Translations under genes and position numbers: made by a program
Shown here: positions 6,721-53,806 of the stretch, piece by piece
Layout of the letters: each line of letters begins with the position of its first letter
Numbering within the stretch: position 1 is the stretch's first letter
NCBI GenBank assembly: GCA_020347565.1
Contig: CP070732.1
Coordinates: forward strand, 861,216-925,215
Source: Methanobacteriota archaeon
Lineage (GTDB): Archaea > Thermoplasmatota > Thermoplasmata > UBA10834
Direction of reading: 5' to 3'
DNA: 64,000 bases
Notes under the pieces: generated by a model
The model's database searches: none
Told to the model about the DNA's origin: nothing
Seen by the model: the letters and a program-made list of their open reading frames with translations, nothing else

Positions 6721-6744
6721 CAGTAACGGCACATGGAACTAGGC

Positions 6745-6760
6745 CGTTGATATATATCCA
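6745..6760. promoter_or_regulatory. TATA box (ttgatatatatcc) in divergent intergenic region
   Basis: This palindromic AT-rich box sits ~30 nt from the minus-strand SRPBCC start (leaderless-type spacing). It lies 110 nt upstream of the PIG-L operon. Confidence 0.4.
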
Positions 6761-6866
6761 TTGCTGAGCGCACACACGAGGCATGAACCGGAGGGCCACA
6801 CAGGTAGTGGGATTTTTATGCGAGGTAATCCGTTCTCCCACCGTCTGCAAGAATGGATGGTTGATT

Positions 6867-18743: not shown

Positions 18744-18775
18744 AGCCGTGGTCGTCTGACGGAGTTGCAGCTGAG

Positions 18776-21257: not shown

Positions 21258-21330
21258 TCTCTTCGACGCGTCGGAAGGGTGGAAGGCAAACGGCATATAC
21301 GCATGCCGGCATCAGGTCAAGCAGAGTTCG

Positions 21331-22083: not shown

Positions 22084-22091
22084 TGCGGCGG

Positions 22092-22457
22092 TCACTGCAG
22101 ATCGTTCAGCCAGTGGGCCACGAGCTCCTCGAAATCGTCCATCGAGACGGGCACGAGGTCGCCTGACACGTACTCGTCTACCGGGACCGAGTAGCTGAGC
22201 TGGGTGCCGTTCCTGAGGACCTTGATCATCATGTTGCCGTCGTACTCCTTGCATCTGATTCTCAGCTGCGTGCCATCCTTGAGCTCGTGCTGCATTTCGT
22301 AGTGCCCGTCGACCTTGTCGAGCCTGTGGGAGTCGATGAGGAACTTGATCGATATCGTCCTCGCGCCGTGGACCTTGACCAGGACCAGGCTCAAGGTAAT
22401 CACGAGTATCATGTCGCGGTCGATCGGCAATCCTGCCTCAGGAGACCCGGACTCCAT
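22092..22457 (-). CDS. Hypothetical small protein (beta-rich, 121 aa)
   Basis: The ORF has high GC3 codon usage typical of the genome. No recognisable motif was found. The start could be the ATG at 22412. Confidence 0.4.
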   Translation of the reverse strand: MESGSPEAGLPIDRDMILVITLSLVLVKVHGARTISIKFLIDSHRLDKVDGHYEMQHELKDGTQLRIRCKEYDGNMMIKVLRNGTQLSYSVPVDEYVSGDLVPVSMDDFEELVAHWLNDLQ

Positions 22458-22544
22458 CCATTCATCCTCAGCTGTCCGGCGATTATGTAGCTGGACTCCT
22501 TTAATTCTTTCTGGGTTAGAGCGTCGTCGGACACCTCCTCAGGC

Positions 22545-23063
22545 CTATCCGAACAATTCAACCTCGAACAGCTCGAACAACGAGAATATGAGTATCGCCC
22601 TGGTGATGCCAGCGAGGATGTTCACTACCACGAACCAGTGAACCTTCATGAGCTCGCCCTCCTTGTTGAGGATGGAGAAGATGTACAGCGGGATCGTGTC
22701 GACCATCCCGGGGATGGACATGATCGCGTACATCGCGACGTAGCCGTACTTCCTGATGAGCACATCGCTCTTCCTCAGGAGCCACTGGTACCAACGCCAT
22801 TTATGGGCATACCTGCCGACGGTCTCGTCGATTTTTCTGCCGAAGAAGAACACCGCGAGGGCGCCCGTGCCCTTCCCGAGGCCCATGACGACCGCCTTCA
22901 CTCCTATGTGTATGCCAGGATTGGCGACCAGTGCGATCTCCACTGGTATCGGGAGGAACACGGCGGCGGCGACGCAGAAGACGTAGAATATCAGGAGGTA
23001 AGTGAGCGGGTCGGCCTGGTTCGCCTCCAGGAACTCCATAAGTTGGCCTAGATAGTCCGTCAT
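22545..23063 (-). CDS. DedA/VTT-domain (TVP38/SNARE-associated) membrane protein
   Basis: Four to five hydrophobic helices are predicted. The motif ...GKGTGALAVFFFGRK... and the ...RKYGYVAMYAIMSIPGMVDTIPLYIFSIL region are typical of the DedA family. Confidence 0.6.
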   Translation of the reverse strand: MTDYLGQLMEFLEANQADPLTYLLIFYVFCVAAAVFLPIPVEIALVANPGIHIGVKAVVMGLGKGTGALAVFFFGRKIDETVGRYAHKWRWYQWLLRKSDVLIRKYGYVAMYAIMSIPGMVDTIPLYIFSILNKEGELMKVHWFVVVNILAGITRAILIFSLFELFEVELFG

Positions 23064-23236
23064 AGATATGTCACGGCAAACACCTTGGCTTACTTCTATG
23101 TTGCTGTGGAAACCCATCTTCGTGCGATGCCCGTGACAGGCGCTTTACGGGCTAGGCCAGAAAAATAAAAGACCGGGTGAATAAATGCCAAATGTATATA
23201 TGCACGTAACATCATCACCATGACTGGGATGTACCA

Positions 23237-23842
23237 ATGGCCAAGGCCGAGAGCAAAGATGCTGATTGGTTCGCTGCGCTCGACGAAGAGCTCGAGAAGA
23301 AGACCCTGGAGGTCACGGACAACACCGTCGAGCAGAACACGCAGAAGGTCGCAGTCAACAGGAGCCTCTTGGAGGACTTCTTCAGGATATGGTCCAGGTT
23401 CAACAAGATCAACGTTCACTACAGCATGGCACCCGAGAACTCGACATTCGCCCAGTTCGTGGTGTACCCCGAGGAATGGAACTTCAAGCCCGACTTCGAC
23501 TTCCTTGGCGTGGACAACGTCGCCCTCACGGACAGGACACAGGGGAGGGTCGGCGACTCCATCAAGGCGTGGTACTACAGTATCGACAGCAAGATGCACA
23601 TAAGGATGGTGTTCGAGTACTGCGAGGGGGAGCACTATTACAAGTATGCCGGTTGGAAGAGGATCTTCAGCCAGTACGTGCTGCTAGATGTGCCCGTCGG
23701 CAAGTTCGACCTCAAGAAGTACCATGAGATGCTCGCCAACACGGTGAAGGTGTGGTACGAGTCGCATCTGAGGAAGGACAGGGACATCATACTCAAGCAC
23801 ATACGGGACAAGTACGAAAAGGGCGAGACTTTCACGCAGTAG
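23237..23842 (+). CDS. Hypothetical protein (201 aa)
   Basis: The ORF has genome-typical codon usage. An AT-rich 'aaatgtatatatgcac' TATA box lies ~45 nt upstream. No motif was recognised. Confidence 0.45.
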   Translation: MAKAESKDADWFAALDEELEKKTLEVTDNTVEQNTQKVAVNRSLLEDFFRIWSRFNKINVHYSMAPENSTFAQFVVYPEEWNFKPDFDFLGVDNVALTDRTQGRVGDSIKAWYYSIDSKMHIRMVFEYCEGEHYYKYAGWKRIFSQYVLLDVPVGKFDLKKYHEMLANTVKVWYESHLRKDRDIILKHIRDKYEKGETFTQ

Positions 23843-23879
23843 CGTTCCCCCGTGTTCAGCATCTGCCAATTCCATTCGC

Positions 23880-24518
23880 TCAGCCGCGGGCCCCCTTGAT
23901 CAGCGTCCTGGACACCACACCGCCCACCACGGTCAGGTCCTCCGTGGGCAGTATCTTCGCAGCGCTCGCGTCGTACAGAATGCTCGCTGAGGCAGACACC
24001 TCGGAGTCACCGAGCCAGAGTATCACGGCCACTGGCAGCCTGTCGAAGAAACGGACCTTCACGCCGACTGTACCCACCTCCAACGGTTCAGCGTTCAGCT
24101 TGGCCGCCACACGCCTCAGGCGCTCCGGGCTGAGCCCGAACTCCTCGACCAGTGGGTCAATGGTCCTCGCCTTGAAGGCCGGGTAATACAGCGCCCCGCC
24201 TGACAGCTCGCGGAAGGAGATGAGGCGGTCGGTCAGCTGCGTCTTGGTCGCCCCGGCGAGGTAGTGCAGTATCAACACCTGAAGGAACCTGGGGACCTCG
24301 GGGCCACCCAAATCGCTGTACGTGACCGCCTTCCCGCTCAGGTCAACGAAGCACTCGTCGTTGAGCATGGCAAGGCGGAGAACTGAAGGTCTGCCGTCGA
24401 CGACCGCGCCGAGGTCCTCTGCCAGCTGCCGAGGGTCCAGTTCTTCCAGGGCGGCCCACGCGAGCTCAAGCGCGTCCGTCAAGGGCGCCTTTCTGCCCGA
24501 TCCGACCCGCACCGTCAT
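23880..24518 (-). CDS. Conserved hypothetical protein co-transcribed with acsE (possibly DUF3786-family, acs-cluster associated)
   Basis: The 212-aa protein has a start that overlaps the acsE stop (ATGA). The family assignment comes from my recollection that DUF3786 genes accompany acs operons. It was not verified. Confidence 0.45.
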   Translation of the reverse strand: MTVRVGSGRKAPLTDALELAWAALEELDPRQLAEDLGAVVDGRPSVLRLAMLNDECFVDLSGKAVTYSDLGGPEVPRFLQVLILHYLAGATKTQLTDRLISFRELSGGALYYPAFKARTIDPLVEEFGLSPERLRRVAAKLNAEPLEVGTVGVKVRFFDRLPVAVILWLGDSEVSASASILYDASAAKILPTEDLTVVGGVVSRTLIKGARG

Positions 24519-25291
24519 GCCCTCAGGAACGAAGGCGCGTAGAGCTTCCTGTTGAGGAGCACCTCCGCCGCCTTCACCACCTTCATGAGCTCGGCGTCGT
24601 TAGGGTCCACGATCGCCGCATCTAGGCCCCTCCCGAGCAGCATGGCGAGATATGTCCGGTTCAGCAGCGACCGCTCCTCCGCGCCGCTCGAGACGTTGCT
24701 GAGACCGACTACAGTCTTGGGCGACGGGTCGTTGAGCGTTCTGAAGGATGTTATCGCGTCGCATACGTCGGGGCACTGGCTCTGGGCGGCCGATATCGGC
24801 AGCACAACCGGGTCGAGGTACACCTTCTCCGGAGGTATGCCCTGGTCCATGGCCGTCGCGAGCAACAACATGGCAATCTCCGTACGCCCCTCCGCGGAGT
24901 TCGGTATGCCCTTCTCATCGATGGTGAGACAGACTATCTCGGCGTTATGCTCCTTCGCCAGTGGGAAGAACTTCTCCATGCGCTTCTGCTCTGCCGTGGT
25001 CGAGTTGATCAGGGGCTCGCGGTTGCACGCAGACAGCCCGGCCGTCTGCGTCTTGAGCCCGGGTGAGTCTATGCAAAGCTTGACGTCGGCCACGTCCTGG
25101 ATCGTCTTGACGAGCCACGCGATGGCCTCCTGGGCGTCGTCCCTTCCCGGACCGGTGTTGACGTCCAGCACGTCCGCGCCGCCCTCGATTTGCTCGTTCG
25201 CAAGTCCCTGGATGTACTTCTCGTCGCGATCGTCTATGGCCTTCGCGACCTGTGGGAACTGACCGTTGATCCTCTCGCCTATCACTATCAT
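24515..25291 (-). CDS. acsE: Methyltetrahydrofolate:corrinoid/iron-sulfur protein Co-methyltransferase (pterin-binding, DHPS-like)
   Basis: The protein reads MIVIGERINGQF...GADVLDVN...LCIDSP...INSTTAEQ...FPLAKEH...DPVVLPISAAQ...VGLSNVS...RTYLAMLLGRGLDAAIVDP. This is co-linear with Moorella AcsE (MLIIGERINGMF...LDLNVG...LCLDST...NSTNAERE...). Length is 258 aa. Confidence 0.9.
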   Translation of the reverse strand: MIVIGERINGQFPQVAKAIDDRDEKYIQGLANEQIEGGADVLDVNTGPGRDDAQEAIAWLVKTIQDVADVKLCIDSPGLKTQTAGLSACNREPLINSTTAEQKRMEKFFPLAKEHNAEIVCLTIDEKGIPNSAEGRTEIAMLLLATAMDQGIPPEKVYLDPVVLPISAAQSQCPDVCDAITSFRTLNDPSPKTVVGLSNVSSGAEERSLLNRTYLAMLLGRGLDAAIVDPNDAELMKVVKAAEVLLNRKLYAPSFLRA

Positions 25292-25427
25292 CTCTCAACC
25301 CCCGCCAATGGTTGTTTGAAGGCCATACACCGTTAGTCTGATATCAATCATTCGGCTCTCCGCGAAGCGCCTGGGACAGCACAACAGTTAATACCGATGC
25401 TAATCGATTGCTGGACGCTGGTCTCGG

Positions 25428-27338
25428 ATGTCTGGTGAGGAGGAGGGGACCCTTTGCACGGTGAGTTTCTCACCTGACGGCGTCGCCGTCGAGATGGTCA
25501 GAGGCACTACCATCCTCGAGGCCTGCAGAGCCGCTGGCATAGCCATAGACGCTGTCTGCGGAGGCACCGGCAAATGCGGCAGATGCAAGGTAAGGCCGAA
25601 GGGGCTTTTCGACCCCGGAGACACCTCCGCCCTCGCCGAGGAAGAACGGGAGTCCGGCGTGGTCCTGGCGTGCGAGACGTTGGTGACCGGCGACCTCGAA
25701 GTGGAGGTGCTGCCGCGCTCAAGGATACGCGAGCATCAAATCCTGACCAGGACGCTGGAGACGCCGGTCGTCAAGCTGTCGCCCTGGGTCAGGAAGGTTC
25801 TGCTGGAGCTCCCGAAGGCCACCCTCTACGACAACACGGCGGATTTCGAGAGGGTCCTGCGAGCGCTAGGCGATAGGAACCTCGAGATGCCCATAGTCAC
25901 GCTCCGCAACATGTCGAACGTCCTGCGGGAAGGCGGGTGGACCGTGACGGCGACGGTGGCCGACCTGAAGAGCAGAGGCGAGATAACGCGTCTCGAGCCC
26001 GGGGACAAGTGCGGCTGCCTCCTGGGGGTCGCGATCGACATCGGCACGACGACGGTCGTCGGGCAGCTTATCGACCTGCTGACGGGCGATGTGCTCGCCA
26101 GCGCATCCGAGTACAACAGGCAGATATCCAAGGGCGAGGACGTCATCGCGAGGATGATGTACGGCGAGGAGAACGGCGTTGGGGAGCTGACGGACCTCGC
26201 GAGAGAGACTGTCAACTCGGTCATCGGCAGGCTGCTGGAGGACACGTCGAAGGAGCGGGAGTGTCCCGTCACCGCCGTCGACGTCGTCGGTGCGGCCATC
26301 GCCGGCAACACGATAATGACGCACTTCTTCGTAGGCGTCGATACGCGCTTCATACGGCTCGAGCCGTACGTTCCCGTAGCCCATCACATGCCGCCGCGCA
26401 GCGGCCATGACCTCGGCATGGAGGCTCACCCATCCAGCGATGTGCTCCTGTTCCCGTCGAGGGCGGGCTACCTCGGCGGAGATGTCGTGGCAGACGTGCT
26501 CGCGAGCGGCATTCACAGGAGCGACGACCTCGCGATGCTGATAGACGTGGGCACCAACGGCGAAATCGTCCTCGGGTGCAGGGAGTGGCTCGTGTCCTGC
26601 GCGTGCTCCGCCGGGCCTGCGTTCGAGGGCGGGGAGGTGTCGTCCGGCATGAGGGCCATGCATGGCGCGATAGACAGCATACGCGTCAACCACGACTTCG
26701 CAACCTCGTACCATGTAATAGGCGATGAGCGGCCGAACGGCATCTGCGGGTCCGGGCTAATAGACCTGATCGCGGAGATGTACGAGAACGGCGTGATAGA
26801 CCGCAAAGCTCGGATACAGCGGCTCCAGACGGACAGGGTAAGGGAGGGCGAGGAAGGGCTGGAGTACGTCGTCGAGTTCCAAGGGAGCCTCGGCGAGGGC
26901 GCGACCGGTGACCTCGTCATAACCGACGCCGACCTGCAGAACGTCCTCAGGACGAAGGCCGCGATCTTCGGCGCAGCGACGGTCCTGCTCAGGAAGATGA
27001 GCGAAGACCTGGACGGCATCGACACGTTTGTGATCGCCGGGGGGTTCGGCAACCACCTCGACATAGACCGCGCCGTCTCTATCGGTATGTTCCCTGACAT
27101 ACCAAGGGACAAGTACAGGTTCATAGGCAACGGGGCCCTCGAGGGCGCGAGGCTCGCTCTGCTCTCAGAGGAGATGCGGAAGGACATGGTGGAGATATTC
27201 GACCAGATGACGTACATCGAGCTGAGCGTGGACAACGACTTCTACGACGAGTTCACCTCCTCGATGTTCATACCGCACACGGATCTCGCGAAGTTCCCCA
27301 GCTTCAAAGACAGAGGGTCACAGGAGACGGCGAGATGA
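25428..27338 (+). CDS. Reductive activator of corrinoid protein (RACo/AcsV): N-terminal [2Fe-2S] ferredoxin + ASKHA ATPase (DUF4445)
   Basis: The N-terminus carries plant-type ferredoxin cysteines (CGGTGKCGRCKV...C). The ~630-aa length matches RACo. The ATPase-like middle and C-terminus and the location inside the acs cluster also fit. Confidence 0.8.
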   Translation: MSGEEEGTLCTVSFSPDGVAVEMVRGTTILEACRAAGIAIDAVCGGTGKCGRCKVRPKGLFDPGDTSALAEEERESGVVLACETLVTGDLEVEVLPRSRIREHQILTRTLETPVVKLSPWVRKVLLELPKATLYDNTADFERVLRALGDRNLEMPIVTLRNMSNVLREGGWTVTATVADLKSRGEITRLEPGDKCGCLLGVAIDIGTTTVVGQLIDLLTGDVLASASEYNRQISKGEDVIARMMYGEENGVGELTDLARETVNSVIGRLLEDTSKERECPVTAVDVVGAAIAGNTIMTHFFVGVDTRFIRLEPYVPVAHHMPPRSGHDLGMEAHPSSDVLLFPSRAGYLGGDVVADVLASGIHRSDDLAMLIDVGTNGEIVLGCREWLVSCACSAGPAFEGGEVSSGMRAMHGAIDSIRVNHDFATSYHVIGDERPNGICGSGLIDLIAEMYENGVIDRKARIQRLQTDRVREGEEGLEYVVEFQGSLGEGATGDLVITDADLQNVLRTKAAIFGAATVLLRKMSEDLDGIDTFVIAGGFGNHLDIDRAVSIGMFPDIPRDKYRFIGNGALEGARLALLSEEMRKDMVEIFDQMTYIELSVDNDFYDEFTSSMFIPHTDLAKFPSFKDRGSQETAR

Positions 27339-28093
27339 ACTCGTTCACCATAGCGGTAGCAGGCAAGGGCGGCGTAGGCAAGACGACCTTCGCCGCGCTT
27401 GCGATAAGGCACCTTCATCACATCACGGGTGAGGTGATATTGGCCGTCGACGCCGATCCCAACGCCAACCTGCACGCGAAGCTCGGGACATCGCCGAGGA
27501 GGACCATCGGCGACATCAGGGAGGAGCTGCTCGTTGAGGCGGACCAGCTGCCTTCAGGAGTTACGAAGCAGGAGCATGTCGACTACCAGATACGGCTGGC
27601 GCTGGCTGAGGGCGACGGGTTCGACCTCCTGACGATGGGGAGGCAGGAGGGGCCTGGATGCTACTGCTATGTGAACAACATCCTCAGGACCTTCGTTGAC
27701 TCCCTATCCGAGAGATACGCTTACGTTGTAATAGACAACGAGGCGGGGATGGAGCACCTCAGCAGGAGGACGACGAGGACCTCGGACGTCCTGTTCGTCG
27801 TCTCCGACGCGTCGAAAGCAGCGGCGGACTCCGCGGTCAGAATCGCGGCGTTGGCAAAGGAAATGGATCTGGGCATAGGTAGGACCGCCCTGGTAAGGAA
27901 CATGCTCCCCCCCGACTCGGACGGGCAGGATGCGCCAGCGGGCTTCGATGCCGCATACGCCGTGACGGCCTCCGCGGCCATACGCTCCGGGAGCATGCGG
28001 AGCGAGTCCCTCCTCGACATACCCCAGCACGACCCCACATATCAGGACATATCGAAGGCCTTGGACGAGGAGAGAAAGCTGGCAAGGCAATGA
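27335..28093 (+). CDS. cooC: CO dehydrogenase/ACS nickel-insertion accessory ATPase CooC/AcsF (MinD/ParA family)
   Basis: The protein begins MNSFTIAVAGKGGVGKTT and has the LAVDADPNANL and CYCYVNNIL (CxC) motifs of CooC. The ATGA overlaps the RACo stop. Confidence 0.85.
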   Translation: MNSFTIAVAGKGGVGKTTFAALAIRHLHHITGEVILAVDADPNANLHAKLGTSPRRTIGDIREELLVEADQLPSGVTKQEHVDYQIRLALAEGDGFDLLTMGRQEGPGCYCYVNNILRTFVDSLSERYAYVVIDNEAGMEHLSRRTTRTSDVLFVVSDASKAAADSAVRIAALAKEMDLGIGRTALVRNMLPPDSDGQDAPAGFDAAYAVTASAAIRSGSMRSESLLDIPQHDPTYQDISKALDEERKLARQ

Positions 28094-28236
28094 CGCAGAC
28101 GTCGATCCGAACAGAAGTGACGTCGCGAGCATCCTGACGCTCGTCCGGCAGCGGGGACGGGCTGACTGGGCGCCTCAAGGTCCCGCAGGGGGCAATGGAA
28201 ACGCACGCACCAACGGTTTCCGTGCCGTGAACGGCT

Positions 28237-29562
28237 TCATGCCAGAGACTTCATCATCTTCGGCAGCCCGGACGACTCCCTCGGCCCGACGGTCACCTTG
28301 AGGTCGGTCAGCTCGTTCAGCTTGCCGCTCATTCTGCTAACCATGCCCGGGATGATGATCTCGTTCCTGTTGCTCTTCTCCTTGACCTTGAAGTCGTCCA
28401 CCGCCTTGGCTACCGACTCCGGCGTCATCTTGCCAGCGGCGAAAGCCGTCATGACGGACTGTCCCTCGGTATCCACCACGAGTAGCCACGCGGGCACCTT
28501 GCTCTTCTCTATGTCCGCACGCACGGTGAAGTACGTCAGCGAGAAGTTCGTGGTGAACATGACAGGCGACGACTCCGTCGGCTCGCCGACTGGGTACAGC
28601 CCTGGCTTGACCTGGATGGGCACTTGCGGGTCGGTGTATATGTTCTGTCTCAGGGCGAGGAGCGGATACACGAAATCCCTCGGCATCTCCTCCATCATGA
28701 TGGCGGATGCGTACTTCATCACGCCCAGTGAGGCATTCATCTTGTCCGCGGTCGACGACCCGAGCACCGCAATCGTCGGGAAGCCGAGCGGCCTGAATTT
28801 GCTCTTTATCGCGGCCCGGCGTATCACCGTCATGTTCTCAAGCATCTTCCCGGAGCTGTCGATCGGCGGCTCGAGGAGCACGTCGCTCAACCCGGCCTTC
28901 TTGGCTCGCTCCGACAGCTCGACGAGTTCGTCCAGGCCGGCGACACCACCTACCACGAGCGGGAGCGACCGGCCCTTCGCGAGTTCCGCCATCGCATCGA
29001 AGTTCGCGCCTGTCGCGCGGTAGAGCAACGGCTTCTTGTCGGCGCACGCATCCGCCGCCTTCGCCGCCAGCGCAGCGTCCTCGCACATCAGCACGATGGG
29101 AAGCTCCTTGCCTGCCGCGGCCTTGACGGCCTCGAGGTAGTCCTCCTCGCTTCCGGACGAGTGCCGCAGGGCCACGGAGTCCACGCGCAGGATCTGACCC
29201 ACCCGCTCGAACGCCGCGGAATGGGCGTCATCGACCCTGGTCCGCATCGCCTCGAGTCCTGCGGAATCGTCGGCTATCAGGCCCAGCACGGTGGGGTTGT
29301 AGAAGGTCTTGTCGTGTCTGAACAGCTGCGTCTCGTCCCCCATCTTGACCGCCAGCTCGCCCGAGCCGATCGTGACGGAGCGGATCGGCGGAGCACCGCT
29401 CTCCTCGAGCTGAGCCTTCGCCTCATCGCTGACGGACGGACAGGCCTCGAGGGACACTTTCTGGTTGGCCAGCTGCATAGCGAATGCGAGGCAGGTTGGA
29501 AACTTGCACTCTCCGCAGTTCGTCTTCGGGAGCAGTTTGTAGATCTCCATCGCAGTCGGCAT
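28237..29562 (-). CDS. acsC: Corrinoid iron-sulfur protein large subunit (AcsC/CdhE)
   Basis: The N-terminus is MEIYKLLPKTNCGECKFPTCLAFAMQLA, the [4Fe-4S] motif of the CFeSP large subunit. A TIM-barrel and B12-binding C-terminus follow. A GGAGG Shine-Dalgarno lies inside the acsD 3' end, with a 1-nt gap. Confidence 0.88.
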   Translation of the reverse strand: MPTAMEIYKLLPKTNCGECKFPTCLAFAMQLANQKVSLEACPSVSDEAKAQLEESGAPPIRSVTIGSGELAVKMGDETQLFRHDKTFYNPTVLGLIADDSAGLEAMRTRVDDAHSAAFERVGQILRVDSVALRHSSGSEEDYLEAVKAAAGKELPIVLMCEDAALAAKAADACADKKPLLYRATGANFDAMAELAKGRSLPLVVGGVAGLDELVELSERAKKAGLSDVLLEPPIDSSGKMLENMTVIRRAAIKSKFRPLGFPTIAVLGSSTADKMNASLGVMKYASAIMMEEMPRDFVYPLLALRQNIYTDPQVPIQVKPGLYPVGEPTESSPVMFTTNFSLTYFTVRADIEKSKVPAWLLVVDTEGQSVMTAFAAGKMTPESVAKAVDDFKVKEKSNRNEIIIPGMVSRMSGKLNELTDLKVTVGPRESSGLPKMMKSLA

Positions 29563-29563
29563 C

Positions 29564-30517
29564 TCACTCGCCTCCTGCCAGGGATTTGAGCGTATCCCTC
29601 AGCATCTTCACCGATTCGGGATGGCGCATCACCACGATGCCCGCCCCGGCTACCGCCGCCGAGAGAGCTGTGATCGTCTCCCAGTATATCCCGCGCATCT
29701 TCACGTCGCCGTGCTCCGGATTCTCCTCCAACGCCTCCGGCACGGTCCACGCGCACGAGCAGTCGCATATCATGGGCATCTGCAGCACGGGATCGCCAGA
29801 CAGCGCCCCGAGTCGCAGGCGTTCGATGTTCGAGTAGGAGTATTCCAATCCCATGCCGAGCGGCGCCATGAGCGGGTCCATGAGGATGTTCTCCGGTTTC
29901 ATGCCGAAGTCGAGCAGCAGGATGTTCATCTGCTTCGCAAGGTTGATGTCCAGGTTGGAGAACGCCACGATACCGTGGCCGTTCGCCATCGACGCGGCAG
30001 CGAGAGACTTGTATGCCTTCTCCTCGGCGAGCCCGAGAAACAGCCGCTCGCCCTTGGCAACGTTGGACACCTTCTCCATGACCTTCGCGTCCTTCTCCTC
30101 GAACCCGCACCCGTAAACTGCGAGCGGTAAAGCGGTCGTCTGAAGCACCTTCGACACGAGCGCCTCGAGCTCCTCAGCGGGCCTGTCCTCCTCCTCCGGA
30201 TTTGCGGATGCAAGCTTGAGGACGCACATATCCGCGCCCCACTCGGCCTCGCACTTCTTGGCCCATCCTGCTGGGTCGGCAAGCGACGGCCCCATCGTCT
30301 CCTGAAGACGCTCAGGCACCATCCGCATCGTGTCAACGACGTCCATCGCGACCAGCGGCATGGGCCCCGACTCCCCCTCGAACAGATGGAAGGGAAGGCC
30401 GTTCGACCCTCCCGCGACGAGCTTGGCGCGCCTGGTTCCCCCGTATTCCTTGGTCGCGCCTATCGCGACCTCCTTGATCCGTCCTCCAAACTTCTCCTTT
30501 GGCACTTCAAATCCCAA
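29564..30517 (-). CDS. acsD: Corrinoid iron-sulfur protein small subunit (AcsD/CdhD)
   Basis: The 317-aa TIM-barrel protein sits immediately upstream of acsC and downstream of the CODH/ACS gene. The start is TTG with AGGGGGA upstream. Confidence 0.85.
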   Translation of the reverse strand: MGFEVPKEKFGGRIKEVAIGATKEYGGTRRAKLVAGGSNGLPFHLFEGESGPMPLVAMDVVDTMRMVPERLQETMGPSLADPAGWAKKCEAEWGADMCVLKLASANPEEEDRPAEELEALVSKVLQTTALPLAVYGCGFEEKDAKVMEKVSNVAKGERLFLGLAEEKAYKSLAAASMANGHGIVAFSNLDINLAKQMNILLLDFGMKPENILMDPLMAPLGMGLEYSYSNIERLRLGALSGDPVLQMPMICDCSCAWTVPEALEENPEHGDVKMRGIYWETITALSAAVAGAGIVVMRHPESVKMLRDTLKSLAGGE

Positions 30518-30538
30518 GTCAGAATCCCCCTGCTAACC

Positions 30539-33500
30539 TCAATTGATCATCGGCGGCATCTTCAGCGCGGGATGGTCGACCTTGGCCATCCACTCGGTGA
30601 GCTCCTCAGGCGTGCGAGCGACCGTCTCGTCGGCGATCTTCTCGATGAAATCCGAGATGCCGAGCTCCTCGGCGCGTCTGGTCAGCTCTTCCTTCATGGC
30701 CTCCTTGAGGTCCTTCGGCATCCATACGATCCGCTCGAAACCGCCGTCCGCGGTGATGAACTTCCTGCTGACCAGGTACTTCCTCCCCACGCCTATGAAC
30801 CCGGGCGTCTGTATGCCTCCTCCGACAGAGCCTGCGAGCGTCGAGAACGTCATGCCGATGGGCGTCATGCCCGAGTACTCCCTGTTCACGACGACCACGC
30901 CCTGCAGGTCCGCGGACACCGCGACGATGCACTCGAAGCATCCGCAAGACGTCATCGGGTCGTCCATCATCGTGTACGCATTGAACTTCTGCAGCTTGCC
31001 CATGGTCTTCTCCGTCACCGCCTCGTTAACGCCGACCCATTGCCCCTTCACCTCGTCGATCACTTCCTTCTTGGGGACCGGGTTGTTCGGACCCGTAGGC
31101 GCGATCTGGTACGACGCCTTCGCGTCGAGCCAGTTAATGGCGCCGCACAGACCGAGCCTCTCCGGCGTGACGATGCACAGATGCCCTGGGGCGAAGCTCT
31201 GGCAGAGCGTGCACGTGTAGAACGTGTCCACCTTCTCGTCCGTGAGGTCGGCTATCCTCGCGTCCCTCTTGGCATACGCCTCGTTCGCCTCGTCGACGTG
31301 TTTCCTCAGCTCCGTCTCGTCCGTGACGATCTTGACCTCCACCTTCGACACTATCGCCCCGAACTCCTCCTTGAGCTTGGTCACCAGTACGTCCCCGATG
31401 TGCTTGAGCCTCAGCCCGGCCTTGACCGAACTCTTGCTCAGGCGGACCCACAGGAGGTTCCTCTGGCCCGTGTGCCAAGTGCCCTCGGCGAAGTTGACGA
31501 ACTGGTGTATGCGGCGCTCCAGCACGGACTCGAAGTCGTCCTGCATGTTCTTGCCGTACACGTTTACCAGTATGCCTAGGTGCGTGGACGAGCCCTCGGC
31601 CATCTCGTCGACGTCCTCGCCGATCAGAGTCACCTGGCCGTCCTTGACCTCCTCCGACCCGCTCATCTTCAGCAGCTCGAACGCCAGCGTCTTCGACGGA
31701 CCGCCAGCCTCGATGTGCATGTCCGGCCGCCTTATCGTCTCGCCTTCGAACGCCGGCCCGTAGGCGACTGGCAGGTCGACTGCCCCCAGCTTGATCCTGC
31801 AGCCTCGGATCTCGATCGCCGTGGCGATCATCTCGTCCAGGTTCTTCTGCACGACGTATTTGTCTGGGATGGGCTCGACTTCCTGGTCGGTTATCGTCGG
31901 CGAGCCGTTGAACATGACGGCGAACTCGGCCGCCACCTTGATGTGGTCGAGCGGGCCCATCTGCAGTACGAAGACCTTCGGCCGTTTGGAAAGGTAGTTG
32001 TACAGGCCCTCGCGGTCGCCCTTCTGTATGCCTCCGAAGGACAGCGCCGCCCTGATGGCGAAGTTCAAGCCATGAATCACCTGCGTGAACTCCCCCACCG
32101 GGTAGAGCATCCTGTCCAGTCCCATGGCGATGTTCTCGTCCTTCAGCTGCTTGATGATGTCATAGGTGGCGATGATGAGCATTCCCTTGTTCTGACAGTC
32201 GCGTATCATCGCCGCGAGCTTCTTCGGATCGGAGGCCTTGCCGACGAACACGGCAGCTCCGGGTATCGTGTCGTCTACGAACGCGATCCCGAGCTGCCTC
32301 AGTATCCTGTCGGGAACGAAGCCGCAGTACGGCGAGCCCTCGTACGGCGCGGGGTTGTCGATGTACTTGAGTGCCTCGACGATCTCCGCCGCCACCATGG
32401 TCGCCTCACCTGAGGCGACCGCTGCCTCGAACGTCGGCTCCTCTACTATCTTGCCCCGCACGTCGCCCAGCATCTTTGGCAGGTTGCCCAGTCGCGTGCA
32501 GTCCTCCCCGAGCCACGCGAACAGGCTCGGGAGCTGATAGCCCGTCTCGGGGAACTCTATCGTCTTGTCCGGCCCGTGCTTCCGCAGCGCGCGGCTGAGC
32601 AGGAAGTCGGCGTATCCGGTCGCGATGATCGAGCCCTCGACAGCCATCCTGTAGAGCTGCTCGTTCGTGACCTTGCCTTTGTCGGGAACGCACATCGCCT
32701 CCCGTTCGACCGCCGGGTCGGTGAGGTCCAGCTTCCATCGCCTGTACTCGATCGCCGAGTAGAGCCGCTTCGCCGCGACGACCGGGTCCTTCTCGAATAT
32801 GAAGTAGCCGCCGTAGACGTCCCTCGCAGTGTTCTCCAGCACTTCGGTCACGAGGGTGCTTCCATACAGGTAGTTGATCGTGCCGACATGGACGGGGAAT
32901 CCCATCGTGACGGCCCATGTTCCGATGGACACGGCCTTTTCGTGCATCGCCTCTGGGGCGGCCGCTACGAACGGTATCTGGTGGATGTCGACGCCCAGCC
33001 TGTTCGCGACCTCCGTCGCCAGGTTGGAGTACCTCGGGTTGTCGACGCACGAGCCGATATGCCACACGCAGGGCAGGCCGTCCACGCCCGCGGCCTCGCT
33101 CAGCTCGGAGAGGAACGACCTCAGCCCCTCACCGGCCGCCTCGCCAACCTTCGCCGGATCCATGAATCCTGCCTTGGCGAGCTCGATGGCGTTGCAGCCG
33201 GTCGCGAGCACCAGCACGTCCCTCTTGACCAGCTCCGCCACCATCGTGATGACGTCCTCGTCCTTCTCCGTACGAAGGTTCTTGCATCCAGCGAAGAGCG
33301 CCAGACCGCGGACCTTTCCGCTCATCATGTTGCTCACGATGTGCTGGAAGGGGTCGTCTGGATTCGCTTTTGAGAACAGCTCCCGCATCTGCTCCACGCT
33401 GAAGCCGGCGACGACCTTCGCAGGAGTGACGGTCGGCAAACGCCTCATGTCGCCCCTGCGCTTGTACGCCTCGAGCGCGAGCAGTAGTATCTCGCGAGCG

Positions 33501-34675
33501 GACTCGCGAGCGTGCTCCGGGATCACCTCTATGTGCGTGTCACCTACGAGACGTGCGGCCGCCTCCGTGCTAATCAGCCTCGTATGGGTGCACTTCGACA
33601 GCGCCGAGAGCGCCGGCAGGAAGCACTGGTAGTCCAGGACCATAGCGTCGAGCAGGCCGCTCAGCAGCACTAGCTCCTGCGCCATCACGTTCGACGCGAT
33701 CGGGATCCCCTTCCGCATGAGTATCTCGTTCCCGGTGCAGCAGACGCCGACGATGTTGAACCCTTCCGCGCCGGCCTTCTTCGCCTCATCCCTCATCTCG
33801 CGGGCGACATCGACCATGATGTCGCTGAGGATTGGGTTGTGGCCGTGCACGGCGACGTTGACGCTCTTCTCGTCGAGCACGCCGAGGTTCGCCTCGCTCA
33901 GGACGACCTTCGGCGTCCCGAAGAGCACGTCGCTCAGGTCGGACGATATCTGTGCGCCAGTGTAGTCCGCAAGTGCGCATCGGATGCCAGCGAAGAGCAT
34001 GGGCACGGGGTCCGCGTCCACGCCCATCGCGGTCCTGTGCATGACGTCGGTTATGACCGACTCGATGTTGTATGGCATGACACCGTGGGAGTCCCACAGG
34101 GCCATCCGCTTGTTGGTTACGGTGGACTTGAGGAACGATAGGGGCTCGTGCGTGTACCTCGAGTAATCGTCGAGGGCCGCGCGGGCCACATCACCGGCCA
34201 GCGCAAGCGTCTCCTTGCCATCGGCTTCGATGCCGAGTTTCTTCGCGATGGCCTGTAGCTTTGTGGGGTCCGTCACTGTGTAGTCTTTGGCCACGCCTCC
34301 CGAGACCTGCAGGAGGACCTCCGCAACCTCCTTGCCATGGTACGAGTGCGATGCGGTCCCGCCGACGATCATCCTGTCTATGTGCCTCGCTACGATCGTG
34401 TAGTCCTTTGCGCCACATATGCCCGTGGTCGGCTCCTTGCCCATTGGGTTGATTCTGCACGGACCCTGGAGGCATATCCTGCAGCACAAACCCAACTTGC
34501 CAAACCTGCACTGGGCGCCTTGGTTGTCCGCACGGTCGTACACTGTGCAGACCTCTTCCCCACGCAGCGTCGTGAACATCTCGCTGCAGCTGCCGTCCCA
34601 AAGCCCGGCAACCCTGTCCTTCTTGCCTTTCGCTGCGGTCTCGGTCGCCCGTGCCTCGCCTCCGTCCATCGTCAT
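30539..34675 (-). CDS. acsAB: Fused bifunctional carbon monoxide dehydrogenase (AcsA/CooS-like, aa ~1-600) / acetyl-CoA synthase (AcsB-like, aa ~600-1378)
   Basis: The N-terminus has the CooS motifs CRFGKLGLCCRICLQGPCRI and ...VAVHGHNPILSD.... The C-terminal ~780 aa are co-linear with Moorella AcsB, including the A-cluster motifs CTLCQSFAPGHLCIVTPERLGLCGAINWLDAKASY and PMTSCGCFECIV. It is one continuous 1378-codon frame. An AGGAG Shine-Dalgarno lies 8 nt upstream. Confidence 0.88.
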   Translation of the reverse strand: MTMDGGEARATETAAKGKKDRVAGLWDGSCSEMFTTLRGEEVCTVYDRADNQGAQCRFGKLGLCCRICLQGPCRINPMGKEPTTGICGAKDYTIVARHIDRMIVGGTASHSYHGKEVAEVLLQVSGGVAKDYTVTDPTKLQAIAKKLGIEADGKETLALAGDVARAALDDYSRYTHEPLSFLKSTVTNKRMALWDSHGVMPYNIESVITDVMHRTAMGVDADPVPMLFAGIRCALADYTGAQISSDLSDVLFGTPKVVLSEANLGVLDEKSVNVAVHGHNPILSDIMVDVAREMRDEAKKAGAEGFNIVGVCCTGNEILMRKGIPIASNVMAQELVLLSGLLDAMVLDYQCFLPALSALSKCTHTRLISTEAAARLVGDTHIEVIPEHARESAREILLLALEAYKRRGDMRRLPTVTPAKVVAGFSVEQMRELFSKANPDDPFQHIVSNMMSGKVRGLALFAGCKNLRTEKDEDVITMVAELVKRDVLVLATGCNAIELAKAGFMDPAKVGEAAGEGLRSFLSELSEAAGVDGLPCVWHIGSCVDNPRYSNLATEVANRLGVDIHQIPFVAAAPEAMHEKAVSIGTWAVTMGFPVHVGTINYLYGSTLVTEVLENTARDVYGGYFIFEKDPVVAAKRLYSAIEYRRWKLDLTDPAVEREAMCVPDKGKVTNEQLYRMAVEGSIIATGYADFLLSRALRKHGPDKTIEFPETGYQLPSLFAWLGEDCTRLGNLPKMLGDVRGKIVEEPTFEAAVASGEATMVAAEIVEALKYIDNPAPYEGSPYCGFVPDRILRQLGIAFVDDTIPGAAVFVGKASDPKKLAAMIRDCQNKGMLIIATYDIIKQLKDENIAMGLDRMLYPVGEFTQVIHGLNFAIRAALSFGGIQKGDREGLYNYLSKRPKVFVLQMGPLDHIKVAAEFAVMFNGSPTITDQEVEPIPDKYVVQKNLDEMIATAIEIRGCRIKLGAVDLPVAYGPAFEGETIRRPDMHIEAGGPSKTLAFELLKMSGSEEVKDGQVTLIGEDVDEMAEGSSTHLGILVNVYGKNMQDDFESVLERRIHQFVNFAEGTWHTGQRNLLWVRLSKSSVKAGLRLKHIGDVLVTKLKEEFGAIVSKVEVKIVTDETELRKHVDEANEAYAKRDARIADLTDEKVDTFYTCTLCQSFAPGHLCIVTPERLGLCGAINWLDAKASYQIAPTGPNNPVPKKEVIDEVKGQWVGVNEAVTEKTMGKLQKFNAYTMMDDPMTSCGCFECIVAVSADLQGVVVVNREYSGMTPIGMTFSTLAGSVGGGIQTPGFIGVGRKYLVSRKFITADGGFERIVWMPKDLKEAMKEELTRRAEELGISDFIEKIADETVARTPEELTEWMAKVDHPALKMPPMIN

Positions 34676-34994
34676 GCGAACAGCTCCTGCATGGCCGTGT
34701 CGTCAGGCAAGGGAGCCGTCGGGCCCCTGCGTCTGGGGTAGCATCACGCGGTCGATGGACGCATCAAACGGGATGTCGTCGAACGGCTTTCGAAAGGGTG
34801 TCCGGTCGTCACGTGCGCAGCGGCGACGCTGTTGAAGTCAAAGGTGACAACGGCACGCCGAACGGTAACATCTGCGCACATTGCTCTCAAACGCAGCCCC
34901 CACCAAGCGATTATCTGGCTCTACTCAACTGCGACAACGGCACTCGGCATTCGACGAATACAGATGCTACTTAAAAACATTGTCGTCTAGTCCA

Positions 34995-35025
34995 CATCGG
35001 CGCGCGCCGATGAGGGCGCGCCCTC
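34995..35025 (-). terminator. Two abutting perfect GC-rich palindromes (CATCGGCGCGCGCCGATG and GAGGGCGCGCCCTC) immediately after the cooC2 stop, followed on the mRNA by TGTTTTTAAG
   Basis: The palindromes were read directly from the sequence. Hairpins plus a T-tract resemble an intrinsic terminator or RNA-stability element between cooC2 and the acsAB promoter region. Confidence 0.35.
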
Positions 35026-35836
35026 ACACGGCGTCAGAAACCCTATCGAGCATGCGCTGAATCTCATTCGAGAGACCTCTAACGGGGGATTCCCAGTCCT
35101 TCGCGGCATCCATCTGGAAGACAGACCTACCTTCGATGTCGGCCCTCGCCACAACCTCGGACCGGGGGAGCGCGAAAGACAGCTCGAGGCCGTGCTCCGC
35201 CAGCATCGACCGTATGGCGCGCTCGTCATGCTCACCGGTCACGTGGTTGGCCACGACGGCCATCCTCTCCAAGCCCATCTCCCGGGCGAGGGCTGCGATC
35301 CTCCTGCCCGTGTCAACGGCCCTCGCGCTGGGCCCGACGACTATCAGCAGCAGGTCGACCCCTCTGCAGGTCGCCCTCCCAAACTGCTCCAGCCCTGCCT
35401 CCATGTCTACCAGGACCGCGTCGTCCCTCTCCAGTATAATGTGGTCGAGCAGCGCTCGCAGGATGGCGTTCTCGGGGCAGAAACAACCGCTGCCTGCAGC
35501 GCGAATCGTTCCCAGGACAACGAGCCTCACGCCGTCCGCGCCCTTGACGGAGTACGCATCCGGAATGTCATCGACCTTAGGGTTGAGCTTGTAGAAGGGA
35601 CCGGTCGTAGCGCCTGGCCTGGAGCCCGTGCGCTCCTCGATCAGGTCGAGCTCAGCCGAGATCGGCTTCGGAACTCGGTCGAGCGGCACTTCCAACACGG
35701 AGTGGAGATGCGAGGCGGGGTCCGCGTCGACTGCTAGCACCTTCATTCCGTCCCGAGCCCACACGCGGGCCAAGGAACCGACGACGGTCGTCTTGCCGAC
35801 GCCGCCCTTGCCGGCGACGGCTATCTTGTAGCCCAA
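35024..35836 (-). CDS. cooC: Second CooC-family Ni-insertion ATPase
   Basis: A TTG start gives the N-terminus LGYKIAVAGKGGVGKTTVVGSLA. The VLAVDADPASHL motif is present. A CxC-like 'GSGCFCPENAIL' motif fits CooC. Upstream ORF codons lack homology. Confidence 0.75.
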   Translation of the reverse strand: MGYKIAVAGKGGVGKTTVVGSLARVWARDGMKVLAVDADPASHLHSVLEVPLDRVPKPISAELDLIEERTGSRPGATTGPFYKLNPKVDDIPDAYSVKGADGVRLVVLGTIRAAGSGCFCPENAILRALLDHIILERDDAVLVDMEAGLEQFGRATCRGVDLLLIVVGPSARAVDTGRRIAALAREMGLERMAVVANHVTGEHDERAIRSMLAEHGLELSFALPRSEVVARADIEGRSVFQMDAAKDWESPVRGLSNEIQRMLDRVSDAV

Positions 35837-35841
35837 TCCAC

Positions 35842-36039
35842 TCAGCCCTTCCCTGGCTTTAGGAGTATCTCGTGCTTGACCAGGTTCGCCTCGTCGAGCA
35901 CGGCACCCTCCACGAGCTTGCGCTCCCCGAGGGTGTCCAAACATACTACGCCCTCCGGGACGATCATGACCTTCGCCGCCTCCTGCATTACCAGGGTGCG
36001 TTCGTCTCCGCTTACCAGATAGACTGCCGATTCACACAT
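35842..36039 (-). CDS. cooT: CooT-like small nickel-binding protein
   Basis: The 65-aa protein starts MCESAVYLVSG... (Cys2). Its size and alternating hydrophobic pattern resemble RrCooT (MCMAKVVLT...). It is co-transcribed upstream of cooC2. Confidence 0.55.
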   Translation of the reverse strand: MCESAVYLVSGDERTLVMQEAAKVMIVPEGVVCLDTLGERKLVEGAVLDEANLVKHEILLKPGKG

Positions 36040-36093
36040 GATGGTTGCTCCTAGCCCCACGGCGTCGTGATGGCTCCGGCCGCATCGCCGTGC

Positions 36094-36498
36094 TCAGTCG
36101 ACGGAATACTCAGCGATCTGCCCGATGACGGCCTTGGCGCCGTCATAGTCGTCTACGCCGAACACGAACCTGAGCTTATCGCCCTCCTGCCCGCTGAGGT
36201 AGCTCGTCTCGACTACCACACCGGCGCTGAGGAGCGCTCTGGCGGCCTTCATCCACTGCCCGGGCTTGTTGTACATCTGCACGACCAAGACCTTGCGCTC
36301 CTTGAAGGGCAGGTCGGACTTCATGAAGGTTCTCCTGCACTCCTCCTCGCAGCCGGTCAGGAACTTAATGACGTACTTGTCGTCAACCTTGGCGGTCGCT
36401 ATCGTGTCAAGGTTGACTTGGTGCTCGGCCAGGAGGCTTATCGCGTTCAGTAGGTTCTCGCTCGATCCGTCGACGGACAGCTCGAATTCCGTTGTCAT
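36094..36498 (-). CDS. ACT-domain protein
   Basis: The 134-aa protein has two beta-alpha-beta-beta-alpha-beta-like halves (…EFELSVDGSSENLLNAISLLAEHQVNLDTIAT… and …VLVVQMYNKPGQWMKAARALLSAGVVVETSY…). A GGGGGAG Shine-Dalgarno precedes the ATG at 36498. Confidence 0.5.
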   Translation of the reverse strand: MTTEFELSVDGSSENLLNAISLLAEHQVNLDTIATAKVDDKYVIKFLTGCEEECRRTFMKSDLPFKERKVLVVQMYNKPGQWMKAARALLSAGVVVETSYLSGQEGDKLRFVFGVDDYDGAKAVIGQIAEYSVD

Positions 36499-36747
36499 CG
36501 AAAACTCCCCCGAGGGCGTCTTTCCAGGATAATGCGATGCCATGTATATATTCTGTACCCAAGACGCTGCGATTGTCGACTCCGACACGGAGCGCGGTTG
36601 CCAGAACTCGTAACGTCGTGCGTGCTGCATCATAGCGTGCTATCACGGCTCTATCGATTGGCTTTCGAAACAGCGGACGGGTCGGCGATCGACCGCAAGC
36701 GAGATTACCACGTTCCATGCTACTGAGGATGAGAGGCTGAAAGGACC

Positions 36748-37524
36748 GTGCCGCCCAGGATCTCCTTTGACCACGTGGCAGATGTGTATGATGAGACGAG
36801 GGCGTATGCTCAAGGCGTGACGGACCTGATAGGCGAGGCGTTGGAGAGGGTCGTCTCGAAGGAGTCGCGACTGCTCGAGGTCGGCGTGGGCACGGGGCGG
36901 ACTGCCCACCCGCTGACTGAGAGGGGATTCGACATCACAGGCGTCGACATATCGACAGGGATGCTGTCGAAGGCGAGGGCCAAAGGCCTGAGGAGACTGC
37001 TCATCGCCGATGCGACAGCGCTCCCGTTCGCCGACCTCGCGTTCGACCATGTCCTCAGTGCGCACCTCACACATCTCATCAGCGATTGGCGCCATGCCCT
37101 GGCGGAGATAGGCCGCGTCGCGAGCGGGCTCTATCTTTCGGTCATCAACGAGAGGATAGGGTGCCAGGCCGAGGAGATGCAGAGGGCGTATGAGGATCTG
37201 TGCGCCGAGGACGGCTTCGAGGTGCGCCATCCGGGCATGAGGGAGAGGGAGATCGCTGACATCGTGGCACCGCTGAAGACGATCGACATCGCCGACAGCA
37301 CCGAGAGCGTCCCCGTGGAGAAGGCGATAGGGCGGTACAGGTCGAGGTGCTTCTCGGACCAGTGGAGCGTGCCGGACGACGTGCACGAGAACGCCATGAG
37401 GAAACTGGAGAGGATGTACGCTGGCGTTAAGGAACTGGACCGCAGGGAGAAGACCCGGCTCTTCATCTGGAGCGCAGGCTATATCCGGGAGTGCGCATCC
37501 GAGCCTGTGCGCACGCCCGAGTGA
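36748..37524 (+). CDS. Class I SAM-dependent methyltransferase
   Basis: SAM-binding motif I reads LLEVGVGTGRTAHPL. Motifs post I and II (DISTGML; RLLIADATALPFADLAFDHVL) follow. The start is GTG with an upstream GAAAGGA. Confidence 0.7.
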   Translation: MPPRISFDHVADVYDETRAYAQGVTDLIGEALERVVSKESRLLEVGVGTGRTAHPLTERGFDITGVDISTGMLSKARAKGLRRLLIADATALPFADLAFDHVLSAHLTHLISDWRHALAEIGRVASGLYLSVINERIGCQAEEMQRAYEDLCAEDGFEVRHPGMREREIADIVAPLKTIDIADSTESVPVEKAIGRYRSRCFSDQWSVPDDVHENAMRKLERMYAGVKELDRREKTRLFIWSAGYIRECASEPVRTPE

Positions 37525-48405: not shown

Positions 48406-48408
48406 TGA

Positions 48409-50013: not shown

Positions 50014-50014
50014 C

Positions 50015-51202: not shown

Positions 51203-51298
51203 CGTATCATACCAGCCTCGTGGACATACCACGACCAGGAGAGGCAAGATGATATTCGTCCTGAAAAGCCTTCTGACGCGGGGCTGCTATGCTCCTGT

Positions 51299-53654: not shown

Positions 53655-53806
53655 CTCTTGCTTCGGAGTCACTATCGCTGACAGCGCCCGGTTTCATTCG
53701 CAGTATAGAGAAATGCTACTAAACCCTTGCGCTAGCACCACGAAGAGGTCGCGCACGAGCGTTCACATCTTCAGGGGAGGCATCGTAAATGCGGAATCAG
53801 CACCAA

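Follow-up and report, generated by a model that had tools for sequence, protein, structure and literature searches.

The question raised by contig CP070732.1, from an archaeon of the order UBA10834 (Ca. Gimiplasmatales / Lunaplasmatales, taxid 2807469), is how an archaeal genome comes to hold genes for a CO dehydrogenase/acetyl-CoA synthase (CODH/ACS) with an architecture that is classically called bacterial. The genes lie between positions 23880 and 36039 of a 64-kb stretch of the contig, referred to here as the window. Three aspects need an answer: what type of enzyme is encoded, whether the genes belong to the lineage in which they are found, and whether the methyl group is carried by a folate or a methanopterin. 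From the evidence presented below, there is high confidence that the cluster represents a complete Wood-Ljungdahl carbonyl branch of the AcsABCDE type that was inherited vertically within the order.

Enzyme type and completeness

A preliminary description of this DNA, made from the sequence alone, listed acsE, RACo, two cooC genes, cooT, acsC, acsD and a CODH/ACS gene as a complete set with an AcsABCDE-like rather than a CdhABCDE-like architecture. Every member of this set was located by a map of the open reading frames (ORFs) and by matches to Pfam and NCBIfam families. The assignment to the AcsABCDE type agrees with the scores of the CODH and ACS parts, the presence of an A1 domain, a short AcsD, a separate AcsE and the lack of a CdhB-like ORF in the cluster. 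The accessory factors that were tested, namely RACo, two CooC paralogues and CooT, are all present. The module has every AcsABCDE feature that was tested except separate AcsA and AcsB subunits, and it has none of the CdhABCDE-specific features that were tested. Two details had been missed in the preliminary description: AcsA and AcsB are fused into one polypeptide, and the gene of a DUF3786 protein overlaps the end of acsE.

A single AcsA-AcsB polypeptide

Residues 29–650 of the fused protein (AcsAB) match TIGR01702 with 664 bits and residues 680–1377 match NF040764 with 957 bits. The CODH part is collinear with Carboxydothermus hydrogenoformans CODH-II over residues 27–650 (653 bits) and scores 630–645 bits against AcsA-type chains of solved structures; against the archaeal CdhA chain 8riu_A, the score is only 46 bits. 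Similarly, the cdhA family TIGR00314 reaches 54 bits on AcsAB against a cutoff of 781. The ACS part is composed of the Pfam domains CODH_A_N, CdhC and ACS_CODH_B_C. It matches C. hydrogenoformans ACS with 809 bits (chain residues 18–728) and Moorella AcsB with 791 bits, versus 342 bits for the CdhC chain 9c0s_E, where the alignment covers A2-A3 only.

The CODH domain is a CooS/AcsA-type Ni-CODH with B, C and D clusters and without an E/F-cluster insert. Ligands are present for the D-cluster (C56, C64), the B-cluster (C65, C68, C73, C87) and the C-cluster (H279, C313, C351, C464, C494, C543), as are the acid-base residues H110 and K580. Conservation was examined in 114 full-length fused homologues, which are cluster representatives of 1300–1450 amino acids (90% clustering; sources NCBI, JGI, ENA and Logan) that contain all four Pfam domains in one ORF. 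The Cys and His metal ligands are 96–100% conserved in this set, K580 having been checked separately, and the A-cluster residues C1155, C1158, C1167, C1177 and C1244-G-C1246 are conserved in 100% of the sequences. The source labels of the representatives include Thermoplasmata, Methanomassiliicoccales, Bathyarchaeia and Halobacteriota.

The A-cluster is also the site of an insertion in two fused homologues of approximately 1895 amino acids (P0085 and P0110). In both, a LAGLIDADG intein of 538 residues stands directly before the residue that matches C1158, a position that maps to nucleotides ~31202–31204 of the window. We take C1158 to be the equivalent of Moorella Cys509, the bridging cysteine of the A-cluster.

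The junction between the two enzymes, residues ~651–671, shows indels of 1–7 residues among the homologues in the conservation profile. Alignments to the PDB end at residue 658 on the AcsA side and resume at residue 672, which corresponds to AcsB residue 18–20. An AlphaFold2 model of residues 1–1131 had a predicted TM-score (pTM) of 0.85. The junction was modeled with a predicted local distance difference test score (pLDDT) of 83–95 and a short helix at residues 654–660. Docking of A1 on the CODH domain of its own chain is compatible with this model, and an (AcsAB)2 homodimer would be equivalent to the bacterial α2β2 enzyme. The fusion is a variation in subunit organization with unchanged chemistry.

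The junction is in frame at every locus from the order UBA10834. Separate acsA and acsB genes were found at loci L030, L031, L032 and L044, where the two are parted by a real stop codon, a Shine-Dalgarno (SD)-like GGAGG and a new ATG (near 11830–11930 in L030 and L031 and at 3930 in L032). At the actinomycete locus L039, acsA and acsB are likewise adjacent and separate. The unfused subclade is nested among fused sequences, which suggests a secondary fission of the fusion.

A further arrangement was observed in the closed Methanomassiliicoccales-like genome CP070767.1, where acsB is split over two loci that are 1.17 Mb apart. The first (L044, 9899–12743) holds acsA with only the A1 domain of acsB. 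The second (L033, 10010–11677) holds the A2-A3 part with acsD and acsC, so that the rearrangement has left a CdhC-like two-domain ACS gene.

Fusions of this kind have been tabulated before. Supplementary Table 1 of PMC6344411 (2019) contains two AcsA-AcsB fusions, filed under 'others' and without analysis. The gene of one of them, OGS44063.1, lies on MGVW01000027.1, the contig of locus L023 in the present comparison. The tabulated fusions and the window protein have the same architecture; the D-cluster is of type II and no C-cluster ligand is missing. What that table calls a 'Cys3 motif at the N-terminus' is reduced in the window protein, where C30 and C43 are conserved at 46% and 22%, respectively. 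A 2026 preprint (PMC13370988) describes AcsB in several archaeal phyla; its searched passages carry no mention of a fusion.

Corrinoid protein, activator and methyltransferase

The two subunits of the corrinoid iron-sulfur protein (CFeSP) were both identified. AcsC contains the Pfam FeS and CdhD domains and matches NF003195 with 539 bits and the Moorella CFeSP large subunit with 399 bits. AcsD exceeds the NF003376 cutoff of 280 with 342 bits and matches the Moorella small subunit with 270 bits. The archaeal family TIGR00381 (cdhD) remained below its cutoff on AcsD and matched only from model position 64. AcsD has the bacterial length and is without the archaeal N-terminal extension. RACo presents the Pfam domains Fer2, RACo_linker, Raco_middle and RACo_C_ter; its NF040756 score of 597 bits is under the strict cutoff of 800.

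AcsE had been described as a pterin methyltransferase that is co-linear with Moorella AcsE. The alignment of residues 1–257 on residues 1–257 of the Moorella methyltransferase (MeTr) is indeed free of gaps (247 bits), and the NF005719 score of 294 bits exceeds the cutoff of 259. Residues matching Moorella Asp75, Asp160 and Asn199 are kept. When solved structures are ranked by their match to AcsE, AcsE/MeTr comes first and MetH domains next. MtrH is absent from the matches altogether, both among NCBIfam and Pfam models (E ≤ 0.001) and among PDB chains (E ≤ 0.01). A grouping of AcsE with MtrH, which had been put forward as the result that would overturn the assignment, was accordingly not observed.

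The four-base overlap between the DUF3786 gene and acsE suggests that the two may be translationally coupled. The DUF3786 protein gave a confident structure model for which no solved structural relative was found. In relatives, DUF3786 goes together with acsE and with folate genes.

Conservation of the cluster within the lineage

A scan of GTDB species representatives produced 44 loci, of which 38 came from metagenome-assembled genomes (MAGs) of Thermoplasmata or Methanomassiliicoccales. The loci closest to the window by AcsAB identity were L001 (91%), L005 (isolate UBA10834, 86%), L004 (closed chromosome CP070748.1, 86%) and RBG_19FT_COMBO_56_21 (L012, same order, 78%). The host is assigned to the order UBA10834 on these grounds. 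From tblastn searches, one gene order is kept in about 25 species-level genomes together with its archaeal flanks: RPA, methyltransferase, ACT-like, cooT, cooC, acsAB, acsD, acsC, cooC, RACo, acsE, DUF3786 and three hypothetical genes. The assemblies that share it include two closed chromosomes, CP070748.1 and the source contig of 1,966,570 bp. AcsAB matches a MAG protein from NCBI on that source contig with 100% identity. An independent Logan assembly of SRR14739668 contains an identical DUF3786 protein and the same gene order, and its acsE, RACo and cooC2 ORFs are as long as those of the window. When the exact sequence of AcsAB was looked up, no contig was found.

The composition of the cluster is native. 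The GC content at third codon positions (GC3) is 0.82 in both the cluster and the neighboring genes, and the two groups do not differ in how far their codon usage lies from the window mean (Mann-Whitney p = 1.0). For AcsAB, AcsE and DUF3786 alike, the nearest homologues come from archaea. Among the loci compared, AcsB is 43–45% identical to bacterial sequences and 57–93% identical to archaeal homologues.

A neighbor-joining tree placed the fused proteins in one archaeal clade with labels from Thermoplasmatota, Methanomassiliicoccales, Bathyarchaeia and Halobacteriota. The unfused L031 was nested inside it, unfused Methanomassiliicoccaceae AcsB was sister to it and the bacteria fell outside. 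This tree is rough, without support values and with many sequences unlabeled, and serves as a guide only. The library of representatives is without taxonomy, and names were available for only a few of the nearest unfused AcsB clusters.

The preliminary description left a choice between lateral acquisition and a module typical of a non-methanogenic archaeal lineage. The second part of that statement holds, and there is no sign of a recent acquisition. The data support vertical inheritance within the order UBA10834, a statement that concerns recent history, as a very old transfer between the domains lies outside the reach of these data.

Source of the methyl group

The genes that adjoin the cluster in related genomes point to a folate. 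In RBG_19FT_COMBO_56_21, formyltetrahydrofolate synthetase (FTHFS, 689 bits) and FolD are encoded no more than 10 kb from the acs cluster, on a side that also contains an AMP-forming acetyl-CoA synthetase, a β-carbonic anhydrase and an MFS transporter. The other side contains an FdhA-like molybdopterin oxidoreductase, an Fe-S protein, FlpD/MvhD and an HdrA-like fragment. These flanking stretches occupy positions 3–7582 and 20647–24122 of the locus, and the window genome has different genes there.

In a Methanomassiliicoccales relative (L046/L047), an AcsE orthologue with 64% identity adjoins methylenetetrahydrofolate reductase (MTHFR), a MetV-like DUF5981 protein, FlpD/MvhD and an HdrA-like protein. 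A DUF3786 gene, FTHFS and FolD are found within 10 kb of that orthologue, with purH on the other side. At L023, FolD is upstream of the cluster.

These linkages are in line with the literature. According to PMC11264602, acsA-E occur with Fhs, FolD and MTHFR in Ca. Gimiplasmatales COMBO-56-21 MAGs, and PMC6147122 describes Methanomassiliicoccales with a complete one-carbon (C1) tetrahydrofolate pathway and no known role for tetrahydromethanopterin (H4MPT). From gene linkage in relatives and from these publications, the methyl donor is most likely methyl-tetrahydrofolate (methyl-H4folate), which is the best-supported reading.

Alternative explanations

Not every observation favors a folate-linked module of the AcsABCDE type. 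No fhs, folD, metF or other methyl-branch gene of either kind is present within the window. The residues with which AcsE binds its pterin are common to pterin methyltransferases and cannot tell a folate from a methanopterin. RACo, AcsE and AcsD also score below the 'exception' cutoffs of the acetogen-specific families NF040756, NF040758 and NF040759, which indicates that they have diverged from the characterized bacterial proteins. The first two of these points, together with the archaeal host, would suit a module that runs on methyl-H4MPT like a classical archaeal acetyl-CoA decarbonylase/synthase (ACDS), with the AcsE homologue as a methyl-H4MPT:corrinoid methyltransferase. Such a module is nonetheless very unlikely. 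AcsE scores above the curated cutoff of a methyl-H4folate family and matched neither a family nor a structure of MtrH. The linkage of its orthologue to MTHFR/MetV, FTHFS and FolD in L046, and of the acs cluster to FTHFS and FolD in L012, argues for folate. In addition, the published surveys find a folate branch and no H4MPT branch in the order and its sister order (PMC11264602, PMC6147122).

The integrity of the locus itself was considered as well. The architecture and the fact that the best structural matches are solved bacterial enzymes could be taken to mean that the archaeon acquired the cluster recently as a bacterial island or that the contig is a bacterial/archaeal assembly chimera, the latter having been named earlier as grounds for rejecting the cluster. 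That the contig is no chimera follows from about 25 independent assemblies with the same order and the same archaeal flanks, and the Logan assembly agrees. An island would also have to be reconciled with GC, GC3 and codon usage equal to those of the neighbors, with the lower identity of AcsB to bacterial than to archaeal sequences and with the separate archaeal clade in the rough tree; on this evidence, an island or chimera is extremely improbable. A frameshift in sequencing or assembly could in principle have joined two genes into acsAB, and adjacent but separate acsA and acsB do exist at the five loci given above. The probability of this artefact is practically negligible: a single ORF is seen in 114 representatives from four sources, the frame is kept across the loci of the order, the window has no counterpart of the stop codon, GGAGG and new ATG of the unfused genomes, and two such fusions were already on record in PMC6344411.

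Proposed mechanism and nickel maturation

In the proposed mechanism, CO2 would be reduced to CO at the complete C-cluster of the N-terminal CooS-type domain of the 1378-residue polypeptide, and the CO would move on to the A-cluster of the three-domain AcsB that forms the C-terminal part of the same chain. AcsE is predicted to take the methyl group from a methyl-pterin, for which methyl-H4folate is the most likely candidate, and to place it on the cobalt of AcsC/AcsD. The corrinoid protein would then methylate the A-cluster, and condensation with CoA would yield acetyl-CoA in a reversible reaction. RACo would re-reduce inactive Co(II) with ATP, and CooT and the two CooC paralogues would insert nickel. 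With respect to physiological direction, the module may serve acetogenesis or autotrophy, methylotrophic acetogenesis, or acetyl-CoA oxidation.

The small CooT protein matches PF10133 over its full length (52 bits, E 8.4e-14), and cooT is found directly upstream of cooC1 in related genomes as well. The ORF of cooC1 reaches 35944 when called mechanically; its likely start is a TTG at 35836, a few bases past the cooT stop codon. CooC1 aligns over its full length with C. hydrogenoformans CooC1 (3kje, 134.8 bits), belongs to the CbiA/ParA-type P-loop proteins of Pfam and contains the motifs GKGGVGKT and GCFCP (CxC). CooC2 is more divergent, with 55 bits to the same structure, and contains GKGGVGKT and GCYC (CxC). 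It is 47–50% identical to cooC products encoded inside clostridial acs operons, and the start of its gene overlaps the RACo stop codon. CooC2 is possibly an AcsF-like paralogue that serves the ACS A-cluster, and there may be a division of labor between the two CooC proteins.

Comparison with known systems

The closest characterized systems are the CODH/ACS of Moorella thermoacetica and C. hydrogenoformans. Their components align almost end to end with those of the window, all cluster ligands are conserved and the methyltransferase AcsE is separate in both cases. The differences are that AcsA and AcsB are two subunits in the bacteria and one polypeptide in the window, that the gene order of the window is not the bacterial one, that DUF3786 overlaps acsE and that the cluster includes cooT. 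The host is archaeal, with an AcsB identity to bacteria of 43–45% among the loci compared.

The archaeal CdhABCDE complex of Methanosarcina and other methanogens shares the overall chemistry, a homologous A2-A3 region and the corrinoid Fe-S protein. That complex has a CdhA-type CODH with E/F clusters and a CdhB subunit, whereas the window cluster has neither; its CdhC is without A1 and its CdhD has an N-terminal extension, whereas the window ACS has A1 and AcsD is short. The window also has a separate AcsE. In contrast, the archaeal corrinoid protein (CoFeSP) carries out methyl transfer itself, according to PMC13370988.

The main finding, the module with its folate branch in this order, has already been published and is ordinary for the lineage. 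A preprint by Zinke et al. (10.1101/2020.03.09.984617) places ACS/CODH and the Wood-Ljungdahl pathway in UBA10834, and PMC13370988 places AcsB in Thermoplasmatota, Methanomassiliicoccales and Bathyarchaeota. The published acsA-E clusters of Ca. Gimiplasmatales (genus COMBO-56-21) and of Methanomassiliicoccales relatives are the same system in the same lineage, and nothing substantive differs. In the searched text of these papers, no AcsA-AcsB fusion, DUF3786 coupling or upstream element is described. These are under-described details and not a new kind of system.

Non-coding elements

The spacer of 348 bp between cooC1 and acsAB contains a block of ~120 nucleotides that aligns across 17 genomes; the remainder of the spacer does not align. 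The block includes the inverted repeat CATCGGC-gcgc-GCCGATG, a T-rich TATA-like box flanked by ATGTT/AACAT, the palindrome ATTCG-T-CGAAT and the motif GCCAG. A reading as a riboswitch or leader RNA was considered and rejected, as RNAalifold returned −1.5 kcal/mol with one 5-bp hairpin. Since there is no credible RNA fold, the block is preferably viewed as DNA and is probably the promoter and operator of acsAB-acsD-acsC. This would probably leave a leader of ~250 nucleotides. An Rfam scan of positions 23000–37000 (E ≤ 1) found nothing. A search of the window with a degenerate motif for a second copy of the block found none, and the pattern missed the block's own copy too due to a one-nucleotide indel, which makes this a weak negative.

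Within the acsAB leader, a TTG-initiated ORF of 48 codons follows a GGGGG motif at 34744–34890 (− strand). Short ORFs occur at the same place in most relatives, but the peptides they encode are not kept from one subclade to another, which makes a conserved leader peptide unlikely.

In the spacer between the divergent acsE and RACo genes (25292–25427), the blocks GTATTAACTGTTG and GCCGAATGATTGATAT are kept across relatives, and GGGGGT is found ~7 nucleotides before the acsE start. Judged by their letters, these look like archaeal promoter (TATA-like) and ribosome-binding (SD-like) elements.

Layout of the region

The features of the cluster are collected in Table 1. The span from 23880 to 36039 coincides with ORF boundaries, from the stop codon of the DUF3786 gene to the ATG of cooT, and is organized as three transcription units on both strands.

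Table 1. Coordinates of the acs cluster features, numbered from the first nucleotide of the window.
Feature	Position	Strand	Description
cooT	35842–36039	−	65 aa, begins MCESAVYL; Pfam PF10133
cooC1	35024–35836	−	CooC-type P-loop Ni-insertion ATPase
Candidate promoter/operator block	34896–35015	−	Non-coding, within the cooC1-acsAB spacer 34676–35023
acsA-acsB, fused	30539–34675	−	1378-residue ORF, CODH and ACS
CODH domain of AcsAB	32726–34597	−	AcsA/CooS-type, clade F-like, residues 27–650
CODH-ACS junction	32663–32725	−	Residues ~651–671, short and variable
AcsB part (A1, A2, A3)	30539–32662	−	Residues 672–1377 and stop codon
acsD, CFeSP small subunit	29564–30517	−	317 aa
acsC, CFeSP large subunit	28237–29562	−	441 aa, N-terminal [4Fe-4S] domain
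cooC2, divergent CooC-family ATPase	27335–28093	+	P-loop families, CxC motif
RACo/AcsV	25428–27338	+	636 aa, four RACo Pfam domains
acsE	24515–25291	−	258 aa; NF005719; aligned to Moorella MeTr
DUF3786 protein	23880–24518	−	212 aa; start overlaps the acsE stop by 4 bases

The archaeal neighbors named in the preliminary description, nep1 (PF03587, 169 bits), purP, an RPA-like OB-fold protein and rpoK/Rpb6, were recovered by family matches, and uS2 can be added to them. The only tRNA of the window, at 62815–62889, is 26.8 kb from the cluster and too distant to be implicated, as had been judged before.

Several observations concern other parts of the window. A protein of 342 amino acids encoded at 58977–60005 (+ strand) has a MarR/TrmB-type winged helix at its N-terminus and a 2x[4Fe-4S] ferredoxin domain at its C-terminus and may be a redox-sensing transcription regulator. 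An apparent operon at 15970–20248 (+ strand) encodes an octopine/nopaline-dehydrogenase-like protein, a protein of 552 amino acids in which nothing but a B12-binding domain at the N-terminus could be recognized, and an asparagine-synthase-like amidotransferase. Past 45.5 kb, GC3 falls from ~0.82 to ~0.73. This region (45493–64000) opens with two large secreted-looking proteins (970 amino acids with CBM96 and 534 amino acids with Big_13), contains transporters and may belong to a more variable section of the genome.

Implications

The single-chain AcsAB, the DUF3786 gene coupled to acsE and the upstream operator might together mark a specifically archaeal, vertically inherited branch of three-domain ACS with no bacterial import. 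This broader reading is doubtful and is offered tentatively. If it were true, it would fit the proposal that an AcsB-like enzyme bearing the prismane-like A1 domain predates the split of bacteria and archaea, and AcsAB would offer structural and engineering studies a CODH/ACS that is naturally 'tethered'.

Beyond what is already published, the value of the locus lies in the widespread fusion and its secondary fission, the association of DUF3786 with acsE and folate genes, and the element upstream of acsAB. The window provides a single-locus confirmation, from a closed genome, that a non-methanogenic Thermoplasmata order has a complete AcsABCDE-type carbonyl branch, and in relatives this branch is physically linked to folate C1 genes. 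The finding is relevant to acetogenesis, autotrophy and methylotrophy in anoxic sediments, as well as to the debate over how the 'bacterial' and 'archaeal' types of CODH/ACS are distributed.

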